NCBI GenBank assembly: GCA_964016885.1
Contig: CAXHJY010001166.1
Span: 1-62,737, forward strand
Reading direction: 5' to 3'
DNA length: 62,737 nt
Source of the DNA: Eledone cirrhosa
Taxonomy: Eukaryota
This document shows positions 3,510 through 62,737 of the stretch, in pieces. The notes beneath the pieces were generated by a model. It worked only from the letters and a program-made list of their open reading frames with translations, had not been told where the DNA came from and ran no database searches. Position 1 is the first letter of the stretch. Every line of letters starts with the position of its first letter. The translations under genes were made by a program, and so were the position numbers.

Positions 3510-5352
<1,843 letters not shown>

Positions 5353-6285: not shown

Positions 6286-6318
<33 letters not shown>

Positions 6319-6319
<1 letters not shown>

Positions 6320-6506
6320 ATTGTTTCTACTTTTGGCACAAGGCCAGCAATTACCCAGTGCATTACTGGTACTTTATTTTATCGACCCCGTAAGGATGAA
6401 AGGCAAAATTAACCTCGGCGGGATTTGAACTCAGATCGTAAAGGGACGTAACTATGCTGGAAAGCATGGCGTCCGACCCCCTACCGATACTGCCAATCCA
6501 CCGCCC
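6319..6506 (-). mobile_element. tRNA-derived Meta-domain-like SINE
   Basis: Reverse complement of ggcggtggattggcag..gagttcaaatcc..gcctttcatccttacggggtcgataaaataaagtaccag..gtagaaacaatt. Confidence 0.85.
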
Positions 6507-6622
6507 TTATTATATATATATATAATAATAATAATAAATTTGAAGACTAAAATCCAAAGCAGCGATTCTTTGCTTAAACTTTAATCTGTTATTTTAATAA
6601 ATATAAATATAAATATATATAT

Positions 6623-12082: not shown

Positions 12083-12423
12083 AATGGGTATAGCTTTCAT
12101 TATGTAAATATCTCCCAATTTTGCCTCATTTCTTCCCATTTCTTCATGGTATTCCCCGTTTGGGTTTTTAGAGGTTGGAAGGTCTGCACTGTGGACGCCA
12201 CGAGACTGAAAGATTAAGATTGCTTCTCAATCATAAGGTCTAGATTTCGAACCCAATCCGTGGCATATTAGGCAAGTGTTTTCATACACTTAACGATACA
12301 ATCGCCCTGTATATCAGGAAACAAAATGTTGCTAATCTTTCCTGTTCTGTGCTTGGTCACCTGTTTCTTCCTAGTAGTTGTGGTTAAGCTGTTTTAAATA
12401 TCCCTGTATGCCCCTGTCTTAAT

Positions 12424-12610
12424 AATTGTTTCTACTTTTGGCACAAGGCCAGCAATTACCCAGTACATTACTGGTACTTTATTTTATCGACCCCGTAAGG
12501 ATGAAAGGCAAAGTTAACCTCAGCGGGATTTGAACTCAGACCGTAAAGGGAGGTAACTATGCTGGAAAGCATGGCGTCCGACCCTCTACCGATACTGCCA
12601 ATTCACCGCC
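12424..12610 (-). mobile_element. Meta-like SINE
   Basis: Family match; degenerate TSD cctgtcttaataat / cctgtccaaataat. Confidence 0.85.
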
Positions 12611-12711
12611 ACCTGTCCAAATAATGCGAGCCAGTCTCTCTATGGTTCCAGCAGACAGCGTTCCGAATATGTTAACCCGTTGGTTATCAATGGAGATGCT
12701 CTGAAGGAGTC

Positions 12712-13500: not shown

Positions 13501-14304
13501 TGGCAGTACCAGTAGGGGGTCGGACGCCATGCTTTTCAGCATTGAGTTACGTCCCTTTATGTTCTGAGTTCAAATCCCGCCGAGGTTAACTTTGTCTTCC
13601 ATCCTCACGGGGTCGATAAAATAAAGTACCAGTAATGCACTGGGGTAATTGCTGGCCTTGTGCCAAAAGTAGAAACAATTATTATTATTATTAATGGTGG
13701 TAGATTGGCAGCATCGGTACAGCGTCCGACAACGTGCTTCGTGGCATAAAGTTACGACCCTTTACATTCTGAATTCAAATCTAGCCGAGGTTAGCTTTGC
13801 CTTTCATCCTTACGGGGTCGATAAAATAAAGTACCAGTCACGCACTGGGGTCGATTTAATCGACTTTCCTCTCCCTTAGAATTGCTGATCTTGTGACTAT
13901 AGTAGAAATAATTGTTTCTATTCTAAAATAGGCACAGCGCCAGCAATTACCCAGTACATTACTGGTACTTTATTTTATCGACCCCGTAAGGATGAAAGGC
14001 AAAGTTAACCTCGGCGGGATTTAAACTCAAATCATAAAGGGACGTAACGCTTCGAAGCATGGTGTCCGACTCTCTACCGATAGTGCCAATCAACCGCCCA
14101 TTATATTAGACTATAAAGGGCGGTGGATTGGCAGTATTGGTAGAGGGTCGGACGCCATATTTGACGTATAGAGTTACGACCCTTGCCATTCTGAGTTCAA
14201 ATTCCGCCGAGGTTAACTTTGCCTTTCATCCTTACGGGGTCGATAAAATAAAGTACCAGTAATGCACTGGGTAATTGCTGGCCTTGTGCCAAACGTAGAA
14301 ACAA
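13501..14304. mobile_element. Cluster of four Meta-like SINEs (+13501-13680, +13696-13910, -13911-14099, +14118-14304)
   Basis: Family matches; nested TSDs. Confidence 0.85.
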
Positions 14305-14610
14305 TTATATTAGACTATAGTAGAAATAATAATTATTATCGTCATCATCGCAGTTATCGTTGTTGATGTTGTTGTTATTGTTGTTGCATGATCCAAGGTA
14401 TTGAAATCTTGTTTAAACAATAACAATTCTCTGTGACGACAACAAAGTAAAAATCTAGCAACGAGCATTTACATAAAAACAAATGGAAATGTAAAATCAA
14501 ACTGATTCTCTCCAAATGAATATTGATTTTCCATACACACCTTTCTCTCTCTCTCTCCTTATATATATATATACACACATATATACATATACACATATAT
14601 ACATATACAC

Positions 14611-15063: not shown

Positions 15064-15744
15064 CCCGCGTGCGTGTGCATGTGTGTGCTTGTGGGTGTAA
15101 TAAACATTAAAATGTATATATAATGTGATGCCATGACGAATCTGCACGTACTAAACTCTGCCATATATGGAGTTACCAATTTATAATTACATGAGATGTG
15201 AACAAGTAAGTTAATGAAGTACACACCATATTAGTTTCTTTCTAGAAAATGTGTTATGCTCAAAGCGAACCTAAATGATTGCATACATTCTAATTACACA
15301 CACAGACAGTACACTCGAAAGTGTTAAGTTACTTGTATTTGAAGACAGTGAAATCCAGAGAGCATAAATAATTAATACAAATTTCACTTTTAGTGTCACA
15401 ATTGTTTCTATGGAGATAAATCCAGTGCCTGTGCGTAGAATAAATCAATTAATCTGCCAAACATTATTAATTAATAATTTAAATATCTATGAGACAAAAA
15501 ATCCGCATTTCATCAGGAAAAACAGAGAGATAAGTTGTGATACTTAACACACTCTGATCACTAAAAATAAAAATGTATAAAAGGGGAAAAGCAAGCTTTC
15601 GAAATGGGAAGACAATATGTAAATAATATTGAACATACACGCAGAGAATATATTATTAATATAAATATTAAAAGTGAAGTTCCGCGGTAGATAGGCATAT
15701 TACTATAAAAAGGAGTGCGCAGATTTGAAATAAATGGGGTAAGA

Positions 15745-16775
15745 AACTGTCACGAGAGCTGGACAACAGAAGATCTTCAGAGGAGAAACTATCAGGAGAG
15801 CTGGACAGTTGAGTCTTCAGAGGAGAAACTATCAGGAGAGCTGGACAGTAGAGTCTTCAGAAGAAACTATCAGGAGAGCTGGACAGTAGAGTCTTCAGAG
15901 AAGAAACTCTCAGGAGAGCTGGACAGTAGAGTCTTCAGAGAAGAAACTATCAGGAGAGCTGGGCAGTAGAGTCTTCAGAGAAGAAACTATCAGGAGAGCT
16001 GGACAGTAGAGTTTTCAGAGAAGAAACTATCAGGAGAGCTGGACAGTAGAGTTTTCAGAGAAGAAACTATCAGGAGAGCTGGACAGTAGAGTCTTCAGAA
16101 GAAACTATCAGGAGAGCTGGACAGTAGAGAGTCTTCAGAAGAAACTATCAGGAGAGCTGGACAGTAGAGTCTTCAGAGAAGAAACTCTCAGGAGAGCTGG
16201 ACAGTAGAGTCTTCAGAGAAGAAACTATCAGGAGAGCTGGGCAGTAGAGTCTTCAGAGAAGAAACTATCAGGAGAGCTGGACAGTAGAGTCTTCAGAGAA
16301 GAAACTATCAGGAGAGCTGGGCAGTAGAGTCTTCAGAGAAGAAACTATCAGGAGAGCTGGACAGTAGAGTTTTCAGAGAAGAAACTATCAGGAGAGCTGG
16401 ACAGTAGAGTTTTCAGAGAAGAAACTATCAGGAGAGCTGGACAGTAGAGAGTCTTCAGAAGAAACTATCAGGAGAGCTGGACAGTAGAGAGTCTTCAGAG
16501 TAGAAAATATCAGGAGAGCTGGACAGCAGAAGGTCTTCAGAGAAGAAACTCTGAGGAGAGCTGGACAGTAGAAGGTATTCAGAGAAGTAACTCTGAGGAG
16601 AGCTGGACAGCAGAAGGTATTCAGAGAAGTAACTCTGAGGAGAGCTGGACAGCAGAAGGTCTTCACAGGAGAAACTATCAGGAGAGTTGGACAGCAGAAG
16701 GTCTTCAGGGAAGAAACTAAGGAAAGCTGGACAGAAAAATCCTTCAAGAGACCTGGACAGTAGAAGGTCTTCAAC
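15745..16775. repeat. ~40-bp minisatellite (caggagagctggacagtagagtcttcagagaagaaactat), ~25 units
   Basis: Direct reading; homogeneous centre with diverged edges. Confidence 0.95.
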
Positions 16776-16873
16776 AGAGAAGATTATTGTTTAAATGGTT
16801 TGCTACTTCTTAAACTATCATTTCTATAAATATTCATATATTCTCTCTCTCTGAGAGAGAAAGAGAGAAAGAA

Positions 16874-31234: not shown

Positions 31235-31267
<33 letters not shown>

Positions 31268-31270
<3 letters not shown>

Positions 31271-31366
31271 CGAAGGAAATGTGGTAAGGAACCAGGTGGA
31301 CCATAACGCACCAAAGTACTCAATACTTAGGGTAGTAGAGTGGGTAATAGGAACAAGTAAGACCCC
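31268..31366 (-). mobile_element. Family-X element truncated at the predicted ribozyme cleavage site
   Basis: Homology to 61169-61266 stops after gacccc. Confidence 0.7.
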
Positions 31367-31946
31367 TTCTTTTTTCACAGGTTAGTAGTAAATCTGTGAT
31401 GGCAAATTGGTGGGGGAAGGGGTAGCTAAACCTGCCGGTAGGAGAACAATAGGTAATTTTCCGAAAGTTAAAATGTTGCTGCTCTCACCCGCTGATCTCG
31501 TTTCAATCAACAAAGTCACGGGGTGTGCAAAGTTTCAGCTCAATTGGACAACTGTTAGGCGACCCTCAAATGCCTTGAAGTTGGAACATACTAGACACAA
31601 TGATTAAGTCTGTTCAAAAGCGGTATACTGTTCCCTATGTCGACCATTTTCTTTTTTCTTCTTAGAGAAATTTAAAAAATAAGGGGCCACCACTCTCTAC
31701 CTAACCTTTCGTAACTGTACTCCTTGTTGTTGTTGTTTACTTTTCCAATGTGTGTGTGTATTAGAGGAGCTCCGATTTCAGAGTCAGGATCGAACATTAA
31801 TCGATCGTTCCTCGAGCTGATCGACAGTGAAACATATGTAATATTATTAAATATGTATATAATGCAACACTGATTCTTTGTTCACTTTTAACATTATTAT
31901 ATATACATATATGTGTGTGTATATGTATTTATTTATGTATATTATA

Positions 31947-35045: not shown

Positions 35046-35243
35046 ATAGGAAAAAGTATGACCTCGACGGTAAAGCTCGAGCCGTTTCGACGGCTATTTT
35101 TGGACTACAGAAATAGCCGTCGAAACGGCTTGAGCTCTGCCGTCGGGGTCATACTTTTTCCTATTACTCACTCTACTACCCTAAGTATTGAGTACTCTGG
35201 TGCGTTATGGTCCACATGGTTCCTTACCACAACTCCTTCGTTA
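35046..35243 (+). mobile_element. Family-X fold-back element
   Basis: Palindrome 35046-35164 plus tail, then (TA)n. Confidence 0.75.
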
Positions 35244-35562: not shown

Positions 35563-36405
35563 ATAAGAACAGATTACATAGATTGGTTGTATTCTAATTT
35601 CACAATCCGGACATAGATTTGTAGAGACTTCAATTAAAACGCCAACAGTCTGTAAAACGTTAAACTAGATTAAATATTATTATCTGTAATAACGAAATAC
35701 CATATTGATACACCAATATTGGGAGCGGGGATTACGTAAGCGATTTTCTTTCCTATTTCAAGGAGATATGCATATCAAGGAATCTAGCTTGATTATTATT
35801 TAGTTTACAAAGTTGTCTATTCTGTTAAATATGATTTAACTTGGTCCATTTGAAAGCTAGCGGGAGATCGACGACGATAACCTAATACCTAATCTAAATA
35901 TCTCTCTATATATATATACACACACATATATATATACACATATACACACATATATATACAGAGAGAGAGAAAGCAGGTTTGTTTATAGGCAGCGAGCGAA
36001 GTTTGAAAATAGGCAGTTACATGTGCTTACGCCGTATATATATATATATAGCTTTCGACAGCTAGATCCATGAGGGTCCTGCCTATTTCCCACTCTAATA
36101 CCCTTAGTATTGAGTACTCATGTGCGTTATGGTGCACTTAGGATCATGCAACACCCTCTTTGTTCCGAAGGAAACAATTCTAGTCCTGTAGAAGCCATTT
36201 CTATATTAAATAGAGAGAGAGAGAGAGAAGTAGTAACAACAGTTACTTCACCATACCGAGAACAATTGTTTCACCTTCAGCTAAAGATTCGCTAAAGTGA
36301 AACAATTGTTCTCGGTATGGTGACCTAACTGGTGTGTTACTACTTCTACCAAACTCGTCCCATGGACTGAGCGCTCTACCACTATGGATATTACCTTCCA
36401 GTGTT

Positions 36406-39659: not shown

Positions 39660-40342
39660 CATCTCGAAAATCTGGGGATCCATCCGGATAAGTTGGAGAC
39701 GGTTGCTTCTGACAGGGCCCCACTGGAATGAGGGTTTGAGGACTATGCCCCCAAGTCTCTCTCAGGATTAAGTTGGCGAAAAAGTAGGAGAAGATCTCGA
39801 AAATCTAGGGATCGAACCGGATCAGTTGTAGACGGTTGCTTCTGATAAGATCCACTGGAAGGAGGGTTTGAGGACTCTGTCCCCAAGACCCACTCAGGAT
39901 TAAGTTGGCGAAGAAATAAGAGAGGAAGATCTCGAAAATCTGGGAATCTAGCCGGATCAGTTAGAGACGGTTGCTTCGGACAGGGCCTACTGGAAGGAGG
40001 GTTTGAGGGCTCTGCCCCCAAGACCCACTCAGGATTAAGTTGGCGAAGAAATAAGAGAGGAAGATCTCGAAAATCTGGGAATCCAGCCGGATCAGTTAGA
40101 GACGGTTGCTTCGGACAGGGCCTACTGGAAGGAGGGTTTGAGGGCTCTGCCCCCAAGACCCACTCAGGATTAAGTTGGCGAAGAAATAAGAGAGGAAGAT
40201 CTCGAAAATCTGGGAATCCAGCCGGATCAGTTAGAGACGGTTGCTTCGGACAGGGCCTACTGGAAGGAGGGTTTGAGGGCTCTGCCCGCAAGACTCTCTC
40301 AGGATTAAGTTGGCGAAAAATAAAGAGAAGATCTCGAAAAAT
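39660..40342 (+). repeat. 135-bp tandem repeat x5 derived from a LINE ORF C-terminus
   Basis: gatctcga anchors at 39793, 39928, 40063, 40198 and 40330; unit translates EEDLENLGIQPDQLETVASDRAYWKEGLRALPPRPTQD*. Confidence 0.8.
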
Positions 40343-52589: not shown

Positions 52590-53180
52590 TCTACCACTTT
52601 ACAGAGTGTTCTGGGTGTATTTTATCATGGCACCAACACTACCACTTTACACAGTGTACTAGGTGTATTATTTTATAATGGCGGTGGATTGGCAGTATCG
52701 GTAGAGGGTCGGACGCCATGCTTTCCAGCATAGTTACGTCCCTTTACGATCTGAGTTCAAATCCCGCCGAGGTTGACTTTGCCTTTCATCCTTACGGGGT
52801 CGATAAAATAAAGTACCAGTAATGCACTGGGATAATTGCTGGCCTTGTGCCTAAAGTAGAAACAATTATTTTATAATGGCACCAACACTACCATTTTACC
52901 GAGTGTACTGGGTGTCTTTTATTGTGGCACCAACACTACCACTTTACAGAGTGTACTAGGTGTATTATTTTATCATGGCACCAACACTACCATTTTACCG
53001 AGTGTACTGGGTGTCTTTTATTGTGGCACCAACACTACCACTTTACAGAGTGTACTAGGTGTATTTTATCATGGCACCAACACTACCACTTTACAGAGTG
53101 TACTGGGTGTATATTTTACAATGGCTCCAGCACTACCACTGGGTACACTTTACAGAGTGTACTGGGTGTATTTTATTGTA
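52590..53180. repeat. ~50-bp minisatellite (ggcaccaacactaccactttacagagtgtact..) interrupted by a SINE
   Basis: Direct reading. Confidence 0.9.
52680..52864 (+). mobile_element. Full-length Meta-like SINE with 13-bp TSD
   Basis: attattttataat at 52667-52679 and 52865-52877. Confidence 0.9.
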
Positions 53181-53935: not shown

Positions 53936-53940
<5 letters not shown>

Positions 53941-54131
53941 AACGAGTAGGACCCCGACGGCTGAGCTCAAGCCGTTTCGACGGTTAATTCTGGACTGAAT
54001 TAGCCGTCGAGACGGCTTGAGCTCAGCCGTCGGGGTCCTACTCGTTCCTATTAGCAACTCTACTACCCTAAGTATTGAGTACTTTGGTGCGTTATGGTCC
54101 ACCTGGTTCCTTACCACATTTCCTTCGTTAT
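53936..54131 (+). mobile_element. Family-X fold-back element
   Basis: Palindrome 53936-54051 plus tail, (TA)n on both sides. Confidence 0.8.
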
Positions 54132-58513: not shown

Positions 58514-59255
58514 GAACAATAGTTTATCCAATATTTAAGTGTATCTGTTGCAGTTATATGCAGTTTATAACCTTATTTATACAAGTTTCTATTTAATATA
58601 TTTAATTCAAATGATTAAGAGTTCAGAGACTTATGGACGAACAATAGTTTATCCAATGTTGAAGTGTATCTGTTGCAGTTATATGCGGTTTATAAGCTTG
58701 TTATATACAAGTTTCTATTTAATATATTTAATTCAAATGATTAAGAGTTCAGAGACTTATGGACGAACAATAGTTTATCCAATGTTGAAGTGTATCTGTT
58801 GCAGTTATATGCGGTTTATAAGCTTGTTATATACAAGTTTCTATTTAATATATTTAATTCAAATGATTAAGAGTTCAGAGACTTATGGACGAACAATAGT
58901 TTATCCAATGTTGAAGTGTATCTGTTGCAGTTATATGCGGTTTATAAGCTTGTTATATACAAGTTTCTATTTAATATATTTAATTCAAATGATTAAGAGT
59001 TCAGAGACTTATGGACGAACAATAGTTTATCCAATGTTGAAGTGTATCTGTTGCAGTTATATGCGGTTTATAAGCTTGTTATATACAAGTTTCTATTTAA
59101 TATATTTAATTCAAATGATTAAGAGTTCAGAGACTTACGGATGAACAATAAATTATCCAATGTTGAAGTGTATCGTTTGTAGTTATATGCGGTTTATAAG
59201 CTTGTCATGCATAAGTTTCTAGTTAATATATTTAATTCAAATGAAGAGTTCAGAG
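58514..59255. repeat. 126-bp tandem repeat, ~5.9 units
   Basis: gaacaata anchors at 58514, 58639, 58765, 58891, 59017 and 59143. Confidence 0.95.
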
Positions 59256-59474
59256 AGTAGAGGCCATTTTATAAAGCGCAATTATTTTGTGTATTGTCCG
59301 CGTAGAATCAATGCATTTCAATAAAAGGTTAAACCAAATATTCCTCTTCGTGTTAACAAGGAACGTTAATTATCAAAGCGCCCATAAGACCACATAACCT
59401 TGGTCATGCACTCCTCAGCACAAGTTATGGCATGAAAGCACTGGTAATGAATGGCTATATACAGAGGTACGTAC

Positions 59475-61170: not shown

Positions 61171-61357
61171 CGAAGGAAATGTGGTAAGGAACCAGGTGGA
61201 CCATAACGCACCAAAGTACTCAATACTTGAGGTAGTAGAGTGGGTAATAGGAACCAGTAAGACCCCGACAGCTGAGCTCAAGCCGTTTCGACGGCTAATT
61301 CTGGCCAGAATTAGCCGTCGAAACGACTTGAGCTCAGCTGTCGGGGTCTTACTGGTT

Positions 61358-61362
<5 letters not shown>
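61169..61362 (-). mobile_element. Family-X fold-back element (most intact copy)
   Basis: Palindrome 61247-61362 centred ctgg|ccag at 61304/61305, (TA)n on both sides. Confidence 0.8.
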
Positions 61363-62199: not shown

Positions 62200-62737
62200 G
62201 AATGTTTCTACTTTTTAGCAGAAGGCCAAGTACATTACTGGTACTTTATTTTATCAACCCTGTGTAGGATGGAAGGCAAAGTTAACCTCGGAAGTTTTTT
62301 AACTCGGAACGTAAAGGGCCATAACTCTATGCTGCAAAGCATGGTGTCTGACGTTCTAATTTAAATAATTGTTTCTACTTTTGGTACAAGGCCAGCAATT
62401 TATTACCTCAGTGCATTACTGGTACTTTATTTTATCGACCCCATAGGGATAGAAGGTAAAGTTTAACCTCGGCAGGATTTGAACTCAGAACGTAAAGGGT
62501 CATAACTATGCCGCAAAACATGGTGTCTCATGCTCTACCGATACTGCCAATCCACCGTCGAATAATAATTATTTCTAATTTTGGCACAAAGTCAGCAGTT
62601 ACCTCAGTAAATTACTGGTACTTTATTCAAATACTGTAAGGATTTGAACGGAGACCATTATTCTCTGTGCTTTAGATGACCATCGCTATTCTTTTGTTGT
62701 AACCGATAGAACAAAATGGCGGTGGATTGGCAGAATC
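62200..62737. mobile_element. Cluster of Meta-like SINE copies and fragments (three minus, one plus starting at ~62718)
   Basis: Family matches. Confidence 0.75.

Follow-up and report, generated by a model that had tools for sequence, protein, structure and literature searches.

In the window, that is, the whole 62,737-nt stretch of Eledone cirrhosa DNA analysed here, one minus-strand copy of a dispersed repeat, family X, begins at the predicted cleavage site of a hammerhead ribozyme, and the question raised by this locus is whether the copy was made from RNA that its own ribozyme had cut. The first-pass annotation had described the copy as beginning at ggggtc, and this is what we find: gacccc lies at 31361-31366, followed by ttc, and the match to family X is 31270-31366. 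The sense motif that it quoted, GAAAC-GGCT-tgagctc-AGCC-GTC^ggggtc, is also present in other copies in the window. Positions in the repeat are counted here from the predicted cut (^), so that +1 is the first G past GTC, which is base 31366 in this copy. Judging from DNA junctions and predicted folds, it is quite probable that the copy, which starts exactly at the predicted cut, was reverse transcribed from ribozyme-cut RNA, and that such cleavage takes place in vivo.

The surroundings of the copy differ from the description that had been given of them (Table 1). The sequence past its end had been called unrelated, and truncation by an adjacent element had been considered. In fact, an A-rich linker of 8 nt is followed by the 3' UTR of the element itself, 94.7% identical to positions 3802-3876 of a full-length copy in which the cut site is 4009/4010, and a different repeat starts only at about 31447 and is itself without its last 15 bp. 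The 3' UTR piece meets this neighbour through a short shared word, the pattern expected for the 5' join of an insertion; together with the loss of the neighbour's last 15 bp, this means that family X interrupted the neighbour and not the reverse. The 133 nt that hold the ribozyme are absent from the copy. As a case that would count against cleavage, the annotation had named the missing part lying beyond an inserted transposon; no such arrangement was found, and a search across the whole window did not find the 133 nt anywhere.

The junction at the cut is exact and shows no microhomology. At the other end, the copy stops at +97, as do most sampled family X copies, and this end is likely the start of reverse transcription. 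The linker probably represents oligo(A) added to an RNA whose 3' end had been trimmed. In the loci matched by a search across the junction, the two sides lie 130-150 nt apart, and no second copy with the exact junction was seen among the 40 best candidates. Similar A-rich linkers precede +1 in six loci (L032, L050, L056, L060, L091 and L240), and pieces of the ORF or 3' UTR are joined through A-rich linkers at the site in L032, L050, L056, L060, L228 and L404; the window copy belongs to this latter class. The other family X copies in the window consist of an inverted and a forward arm with (TA)n on both flanks. None of the family X copies in the window has the 5' half of the hammerhead, which was found only in longer genomic copies.

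Table 1. Coordinates of features in the window, and genomic loci in which U6 is joined at the cut
Feature	Position	Strand	Remarks
Family X end-repeat segment	31270..31366	-	from +1 (31366) to the fixed 3' end at +97 (31270)
A-rich 8-nt linker, foreign to the element	31367..31374	-	
Piece of the same element's 3' UTR	31375..31449	-	last base 134 nt upstream of the cut site
Incomplete, unrelated high-copy repeat	31447..31674	-	without its last 15 bp
(TA)n target flank	31238..31269	.	borders the insertion at its 3' end
Typical two-armed family X copy	53940..54128	+	an inverted arm (+20) and a forward arm (+97) that converge close to the likely promoter start
Two-armed family X copy	61171..61359	-	subfamily with the best-folding hammerhead
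Two-armed family X copy	35049..35241	+	another subfamily
Family Y	36160-36200		related repeat, also at many other loci
Tandem arrays	15741-16783; 39661-40340; 58514-59256		units of ~40, 135 and 125 nt
Abundant SINE-like family	6317-6508, 12420-12611, 13501-14305, 52677-52871, 62203-62627		~190 nt
U6-at-cut loci	L415/L237, L427, L436, L451, L452, L438, L463, L431, L458, L472		two with the junction in both arms

By its sequence motifs, family X forms the end repeat of a Penelope-like retrotransposon whose protein has Hydra-clade features; exact matches to a 34-nt anchor of the repeat number 15,934 in the genome, which is 3.0 Gb in size. Where two family X repeats lie some 3.6 kb from each other (L309-L311, L323), the DNA between them has motifs of a reverse transcriptase (YRDD) and of a GIY-YIG nuclease at the C terminus, both identified through these motifs; Pfam and PDB-sequence searches with the element's protein gave no match. 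As in endonuclease-bearing (EN+) Penelope-like elements, a single ORF encodes both domains and is flanked by end repeats, and partial tandems, an inverted 5' copy and an optional tail all occur, the 3' ends being at +20 or +97. The features of the Hydra clade are present as well: DKT in place of DKG (residue 199 in the L311 frame), an RWR motif, corresponding to the clade's RWK, in the L050 start-codon frame, a CxCX5C linker that is intact in L310, L321, L325 and L327 and altered in L311, CxxC and CxH beside the conserved E and N, no CCHH (a single Cys lies between the IY and YIG motifs), and (TA)n at the end of nearly all of the 95 sampled arms. A second, divergent Penelope-type ORF with similar motifs (L311:570-2139, minus strand) adjoins the family X element. 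The Naiad clade is ruled out by the nuclease being C-terminal and not N-terminal and by DKT in place of DKA, and a Helitron/MITE reading was abandoned when the full ORF came to light. Nor is family X a non-LTR retrozyme, as its copies are dispersed two-armed fragments and not non-coding tandem units each with a whole hammerhead.

The hammerhead itself is seen in the long copies of family X, which carry a stem I of 5 bp, a seven-base core, a stem II of 6-8 bp with a loop of about 40 nt, GAAA, a stem III of 6 bp and GUC, with the three stems placed around the core in the type I order I-II-III-I'. Its 5' half was present in 6-7 of the 95 sampled copies and missing from most. The canonical C3-G8 core (CUGANGA) occurs in no long family X copy examined. 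Two subfamilies, including that of the window copy, have a U3-A8 core, a variant reported from Schistosoma Cercyon in the available part of PMC4209133, and show the 3-8 base pair, the GAAA and an NUH cleavage site; a third has a mismatched C3.A8 core, and a G3.A8 mismatch also occurs. Folding one natural copy of each, we obtained the hammerhead as the lowest-energy structure in the best-folding subfamily (pair probabilities 0.98/0.76/0.75), in competition with other folds in the second, to which the window copy belongs (0.91/0.38/0.35), and rarely in the third (0.47/0.14/0.09). Variation within family X is too small to reveal covariation of the stems; in stem I, as read by eye, both strands differ from one sister family to another and also among copies of family Y. 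An Rfam scan of the window, which lacks the long copies, gave microsatellite-driven miRNA matches only, among the 150 of 558 rows listed.

The hammerhead layout is shared by sister families present at these loci, the cores of which are canonical or U3-A8. Family Y is a related repeat with a canonical CUGAUGA hammerhead, the stem I of which covaries by eye between subfamilies; its likely promoter start is just upstream of the whole ribozyme and not inside it. Families W and V have U3-A8 cores and a minimal palindromic stem III, V carrying GCAA for GAAA, and family Z has a canonical core with a long stem II as in family X. The window holds family W with two arms and one copy of family Z.

To see where copies start, the first 100 anchor matches listed were taken as a sample, and 95 were fetched. 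The main class, 50 of the 95 arms, starts at -36 to -48, about 40-45 nt upstream of the cut, at an initiator-like A preceded at 29 nt by a TATA-like word (the spacing is 32 in family Y). On the initiator consensus, this class likely marks the transcription start and promoter. At the promoter-end junction, two loci (L107, L164) have long runs of T or A, oriented as if the enzyme had added A to run-off cDNA ends. Most sampled arms run straight through GTC/GGGG; 6-7 of the 95 start within about 1 nt of the cut, where 1.4 are expected (p about 0.003) from 27 ends over 59 other positions, or a background of about 0.5% of arms per base. Three-G variants at +2 that continue upstream (L103, L177, L203) were left out of this count.

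A spike of 5' ends at GTC^ had been named beforehand as the test of cleavage in vivo, and it is present genome-wide, with 341 junctions at +1 vs 61 at -23, the single control position counted, which has the same GTC^G context. Normalised by the 92 and 80 sample matches, the excess is 4.9-fold, a rough ratio because many joins in both sets share G-run microhomology; part of the 341 is inflated in this way, many being inverted-arm joins that share G letters. Direct joins to (TA)n were counted by hand in 35 distinct loci among the first 100 rows listed. Ten were at +1/-1, one at -3, none at -4 to -10 and two at +2 to +6, so that the site has 10 and the 13 positions next to it have 3 in all, and 11 more were at +7/+8, where TA microhomology exists. 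The annotation's reading of the copy as the 3' product of cleavage thus gains support from the spike and from the start at the cut, but it needs amending in that the cut is a minor class of end (those 6-7 arms) and that the copy is not merely truncated but continues through its linker into its own 3' UTR. Chance truncation, which the annotation had allowed, does not account for the site junctions as a class, which exceed chance, although one copy alone could not have shown this.

The other side of the cut is recorded too. In 13 loci, A/U-rich inserts lie exactly between the two halves of the cut, after L303 and L394 had been dropped as chance matches outside the family. Over the span from -5 to +4, all seven loci with A/U-rich inserts carry them between GTC and GGGG (100 of the 124 matches listed). 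This span replaced an insert control at -23 that was uninformative, as the first 100 of its 725 matches consisted entirely of local duplications and joins of inverted arms; the fifth of the genome from which these came was also empty of tails at the site, within the insert length limit. In eleven of the 13 tailed loci the element goes on upstream of the tail and includes the ribozyme's 5' half, vs none of 23 duplication or G-run-gain controls (p about 1e-7), and such continuation occurs in 6-7 of the 95 arms of the unbiased sample. It follows that the tails were attached to RNA 3' ends terminating at GUC and not to a copy that had paused on an RNA begun at the promoter. In 6 of 16 site loci the partner arm also has its end at +1/+2, which is the case in 0 of 23 control loci (p 0.0025), as expected if both cDNAs ran off one RNA end. 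One locus (L398) has the same 5-nt tail at the cut in both arms, which points to one joined RNA template or to identical jumps.

The junctions are unevenly spread over the subfamilies. The best-folding one provides 44 of the first 100 site junctions (hand count) and 7 of the 13 tails, whereas it accounts for 17 of the 92 arms in the sample and for 10 of some 58 duplication matches (about 17-18%; p about 3e-4). The duplication matches were added as a denominator because copies of this subfamily are under-represented by the 34-nt anchor as well as by the -23 control. Among bystander copies, 14 of 33 are of the best-folding subfamily, a proportion that was not used as a denominator, since the loci had been chosen on family X junctions, and that argues for caution with the subfamily ratio.

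A third kind of junction involves U6 snRNA. At one site locus the 3' end of U6 (identified with Rfam) is joined to +1 in both arms. The U6 3' motif has 112 matches, of which 100 were listed (25 of them in a tandem array), and 77 ends were examined. Joins of U6 to hammerhead families were found in two loci for family X, three for W, two for V (by BLAST; one with a mismatch at +1) and three for Y (short matches, read by eye). U6 is fused at the predicted cut (+1) in 10 of the 10 chimeras, over four Penelope-type hammerhead families, and among the 77 ends there was no U6 join elsewhere within 150 nt, even at the much commoner promoter end of family X. Hammerhead cleavage leaves a 5'-OH end and, on the other product, a 2',3'-cyclic phosphate. 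U6 ends in a 2',3'-cyclic phosphate, and RtcB ligates U6 to 5'-OH ends, according to the available part of PMC6789731. However, many other repeats, in which no ribozyme was sought, also carry U6 fusions; a U6 fusion alone is no proof of a 5'-OH, and end-to-end template jumping is a possible alternative. The tandem array of U6 3' motifs, with at least 25 motifs at a period of about 1.8 kb (G000:C19:31778863-31830972), is likely a U6 gene cluster. Of the dispersed U6 ends (L414-L487), about a quarter are attached to one repeat, at almost the same position in it, and others are attached to the heads of tRNA-like SINEs.

Could the same junctions arise without any cut, by reverse transcriptase pausing at the foot of stem III or at the G run and switching template, with 3' exonucleases halting at the same hairpin? 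Stem III is a stable hairpin by itself (-7.8 kcal/mol) with its foot 1-2 nt from the cut, a few flank joins are at -1/-2, and subfamilies with mismatched cores still give some site junctions and tails: 3 of the 13 tailed loci have the C3.A8 core, the hammerhead fold of which is poorly populated and which, by the fold model, should cut badly in cis. However, the best-folding subfamily, which gives the most site junctions, often has the weaker stem III hairpin (-5.6 kcal/mol), with a stem III pair probability of 0.16 vs 0.34-0.38 in the promoter-started leader, although stalling would predict the reverse. In families W and V this place forms no hairpin (0 kcal/mol), yet U6 is at +1 in 5 of their 5 loci; the inserts are not scattered over -5 to +4, and both arms end together. 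We therefore regard pausing as improbable.

Another explanation is that RNA ends do exist at this bond but result from a second start site or from cutting by a protein nuclease, in which case the hammerhead fold would be a relic. All family X subfamilies seen have a non-canonical core (U3-A8, C3.A8 or G3.A8), and DNA records cannot identify the catalyst. This explanation is nevertheless very unlikely, as the junction falls at an NUH site in four families with different flanks, one of which has a canonical core and a covarying stem I, and the junction rate follows predicted fold quality; a second start site, moreover, would not yield matching tailed 3' ends. It is equally hard to credit that the window copy coincides with the site by accident, having been produced by chance truncation or by a DNA deletion at a later time that left filler bases, for, although this is a single locus with a junction unrepeated among the best candidates, and truncation does occur at the background rate, the junction is exact, without microhomology, and has an A-rich linker like those of L032, L050, L056 and L060, and the repeat that was cut is the neighbouring one.

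The best reading of these junctions is that germ-line RNA of family X is sometimes cut by its own ribozyme and that the cut product is reverse transcribed. Most RNAs would start at the promoter, which lies in the long loop of stem II, and would therefore contain the ribozyme's 3' half alone; those reading through the 3' UTR would hold all of it and would sometimes cut themselves, so that one product begins at +1 and the other finishes with GUC. The enzyme would nick (TA)n and prime at the internal sites +97 and +20, as the fixed ends and the available part of PMC11167929 suggest. The cDNA would then be copied towards the RNA 5' end and, at +1, would either stop and be joined or continue, through a template jump or a prior ligation, onto a free 3' end. 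Such acceptors would include: the tailed, intact GUC end; U6; and, for the window copy, an oligo-adenylated end trimmed by 133 nt. The window copy may thus have been primed at +97, have run off at +1, jumped to the oligo-adenylated end trimmed to -134, taken in some 75 nt more of 3' UTR, and finally been joined to the neighbour by microhomology. Cleavage is in any case a minor route, most templates being uncut, in agreement with what the accessible text of PMC11167929 describes.

A wider reading can be offered tentatively, and we would not bet on all its parts holding together: with the promoter inside the ribozyme, only read-through RNAs might cut themselves, unless a 3' end pairs with a 5' leader; unit RNAs with 5'-OH ends might be circularised or joined to U6 by host RtcB; tailed or trimmed ends might be caught by jumps of the enzyme; circles might give rise to full tandem, promoter-restoring copies; and the genome might then be a countable fossil record of cleavage rates for each subfamily.

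Hammerheads sit in the end repeats of most Penelope-like clades. Their function in these clades is called unclear in PMC8557442, and PMC4209133 states that in vivo evidence is absent and proposes self-scission with circularisation; for Anolis Poseidon, PMC11167929 reports no RNA reads beginning or ending at the site and finds cleavage dispensable for insertion in vitro, each as given in the excerpts available. Germ-line junctions are a DNA record of likely cleavage in vivo and a way round the absence of RNA ends. They mark both sides of the predicted cut, recur in four families and track predicted fold quality, and they allow a question so far open to be tested directly on natural variants that can be named; counting junctions can be applied to any genome. 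In the titles and abstract openings searched, we found no report of genomic copies or U6 chimeras ending at Penelope hammerhead sites, nor of a promoter within stem II or a genomic record of both cut ends; the supplements of PMC8557442 (Hydra families, hammerheads), which lay outside this search, may hold family X.

Both the kind of element and the kind of ribozyme are already known, and the comparisons that follow are with the accessible portions of the cited papers. Family X resembles the Hydra clade (PMC8557442) in its C-terminal GIY-YIG, DKT, RW(K/R), CxCX5C linker, lack of CCHH and CxxC/CxH, and also in (TA)n targets, inverted and partial-tandem insertions and a hammerhead in the end repeat. 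It differs in having a U3-A8 core, a stem II loop, some 40 nt long, in which the likely promoter start is located, and fixed 3' ends 77 nt apart instead of 30-40. With the Penelope hammerheads of PMC4209133 it shares type I topology, a short stem I, a long stem II, G10.1-C11.1 and the U3-A8 variant, but its stem III is a full 6 bp and not minimal. Metazoan non-LTR retrozymes (10.64898/2026.07.22.740005, PMC7229834), for which a cycle of cutting and ligation has been proposed, likewise have type I hammerheads tied to Penelope end repeats, whereas the short copies of family X are fragments of an element with a full ORF. As in Poseidon of Anolis carolinensis (PMC11167929), two internal start sites of reverse transcription define the tail, both DNA strands are nicked and extended, and uncut RNA is the main template; unlike the RNA reads of Poseidon, a minority of the genomic copies of family X end at the cut. 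The chimeras, finally, are like those of U6 and LINE-1 (PMC6789731), in which RtcB ligates the U6 3' end with five U to the 5' end of a retroelement and the product is then retrotransposed, except that the L1 partners are variably truncated and here the join is at one fixed base, the predicted product of a ribozyme.
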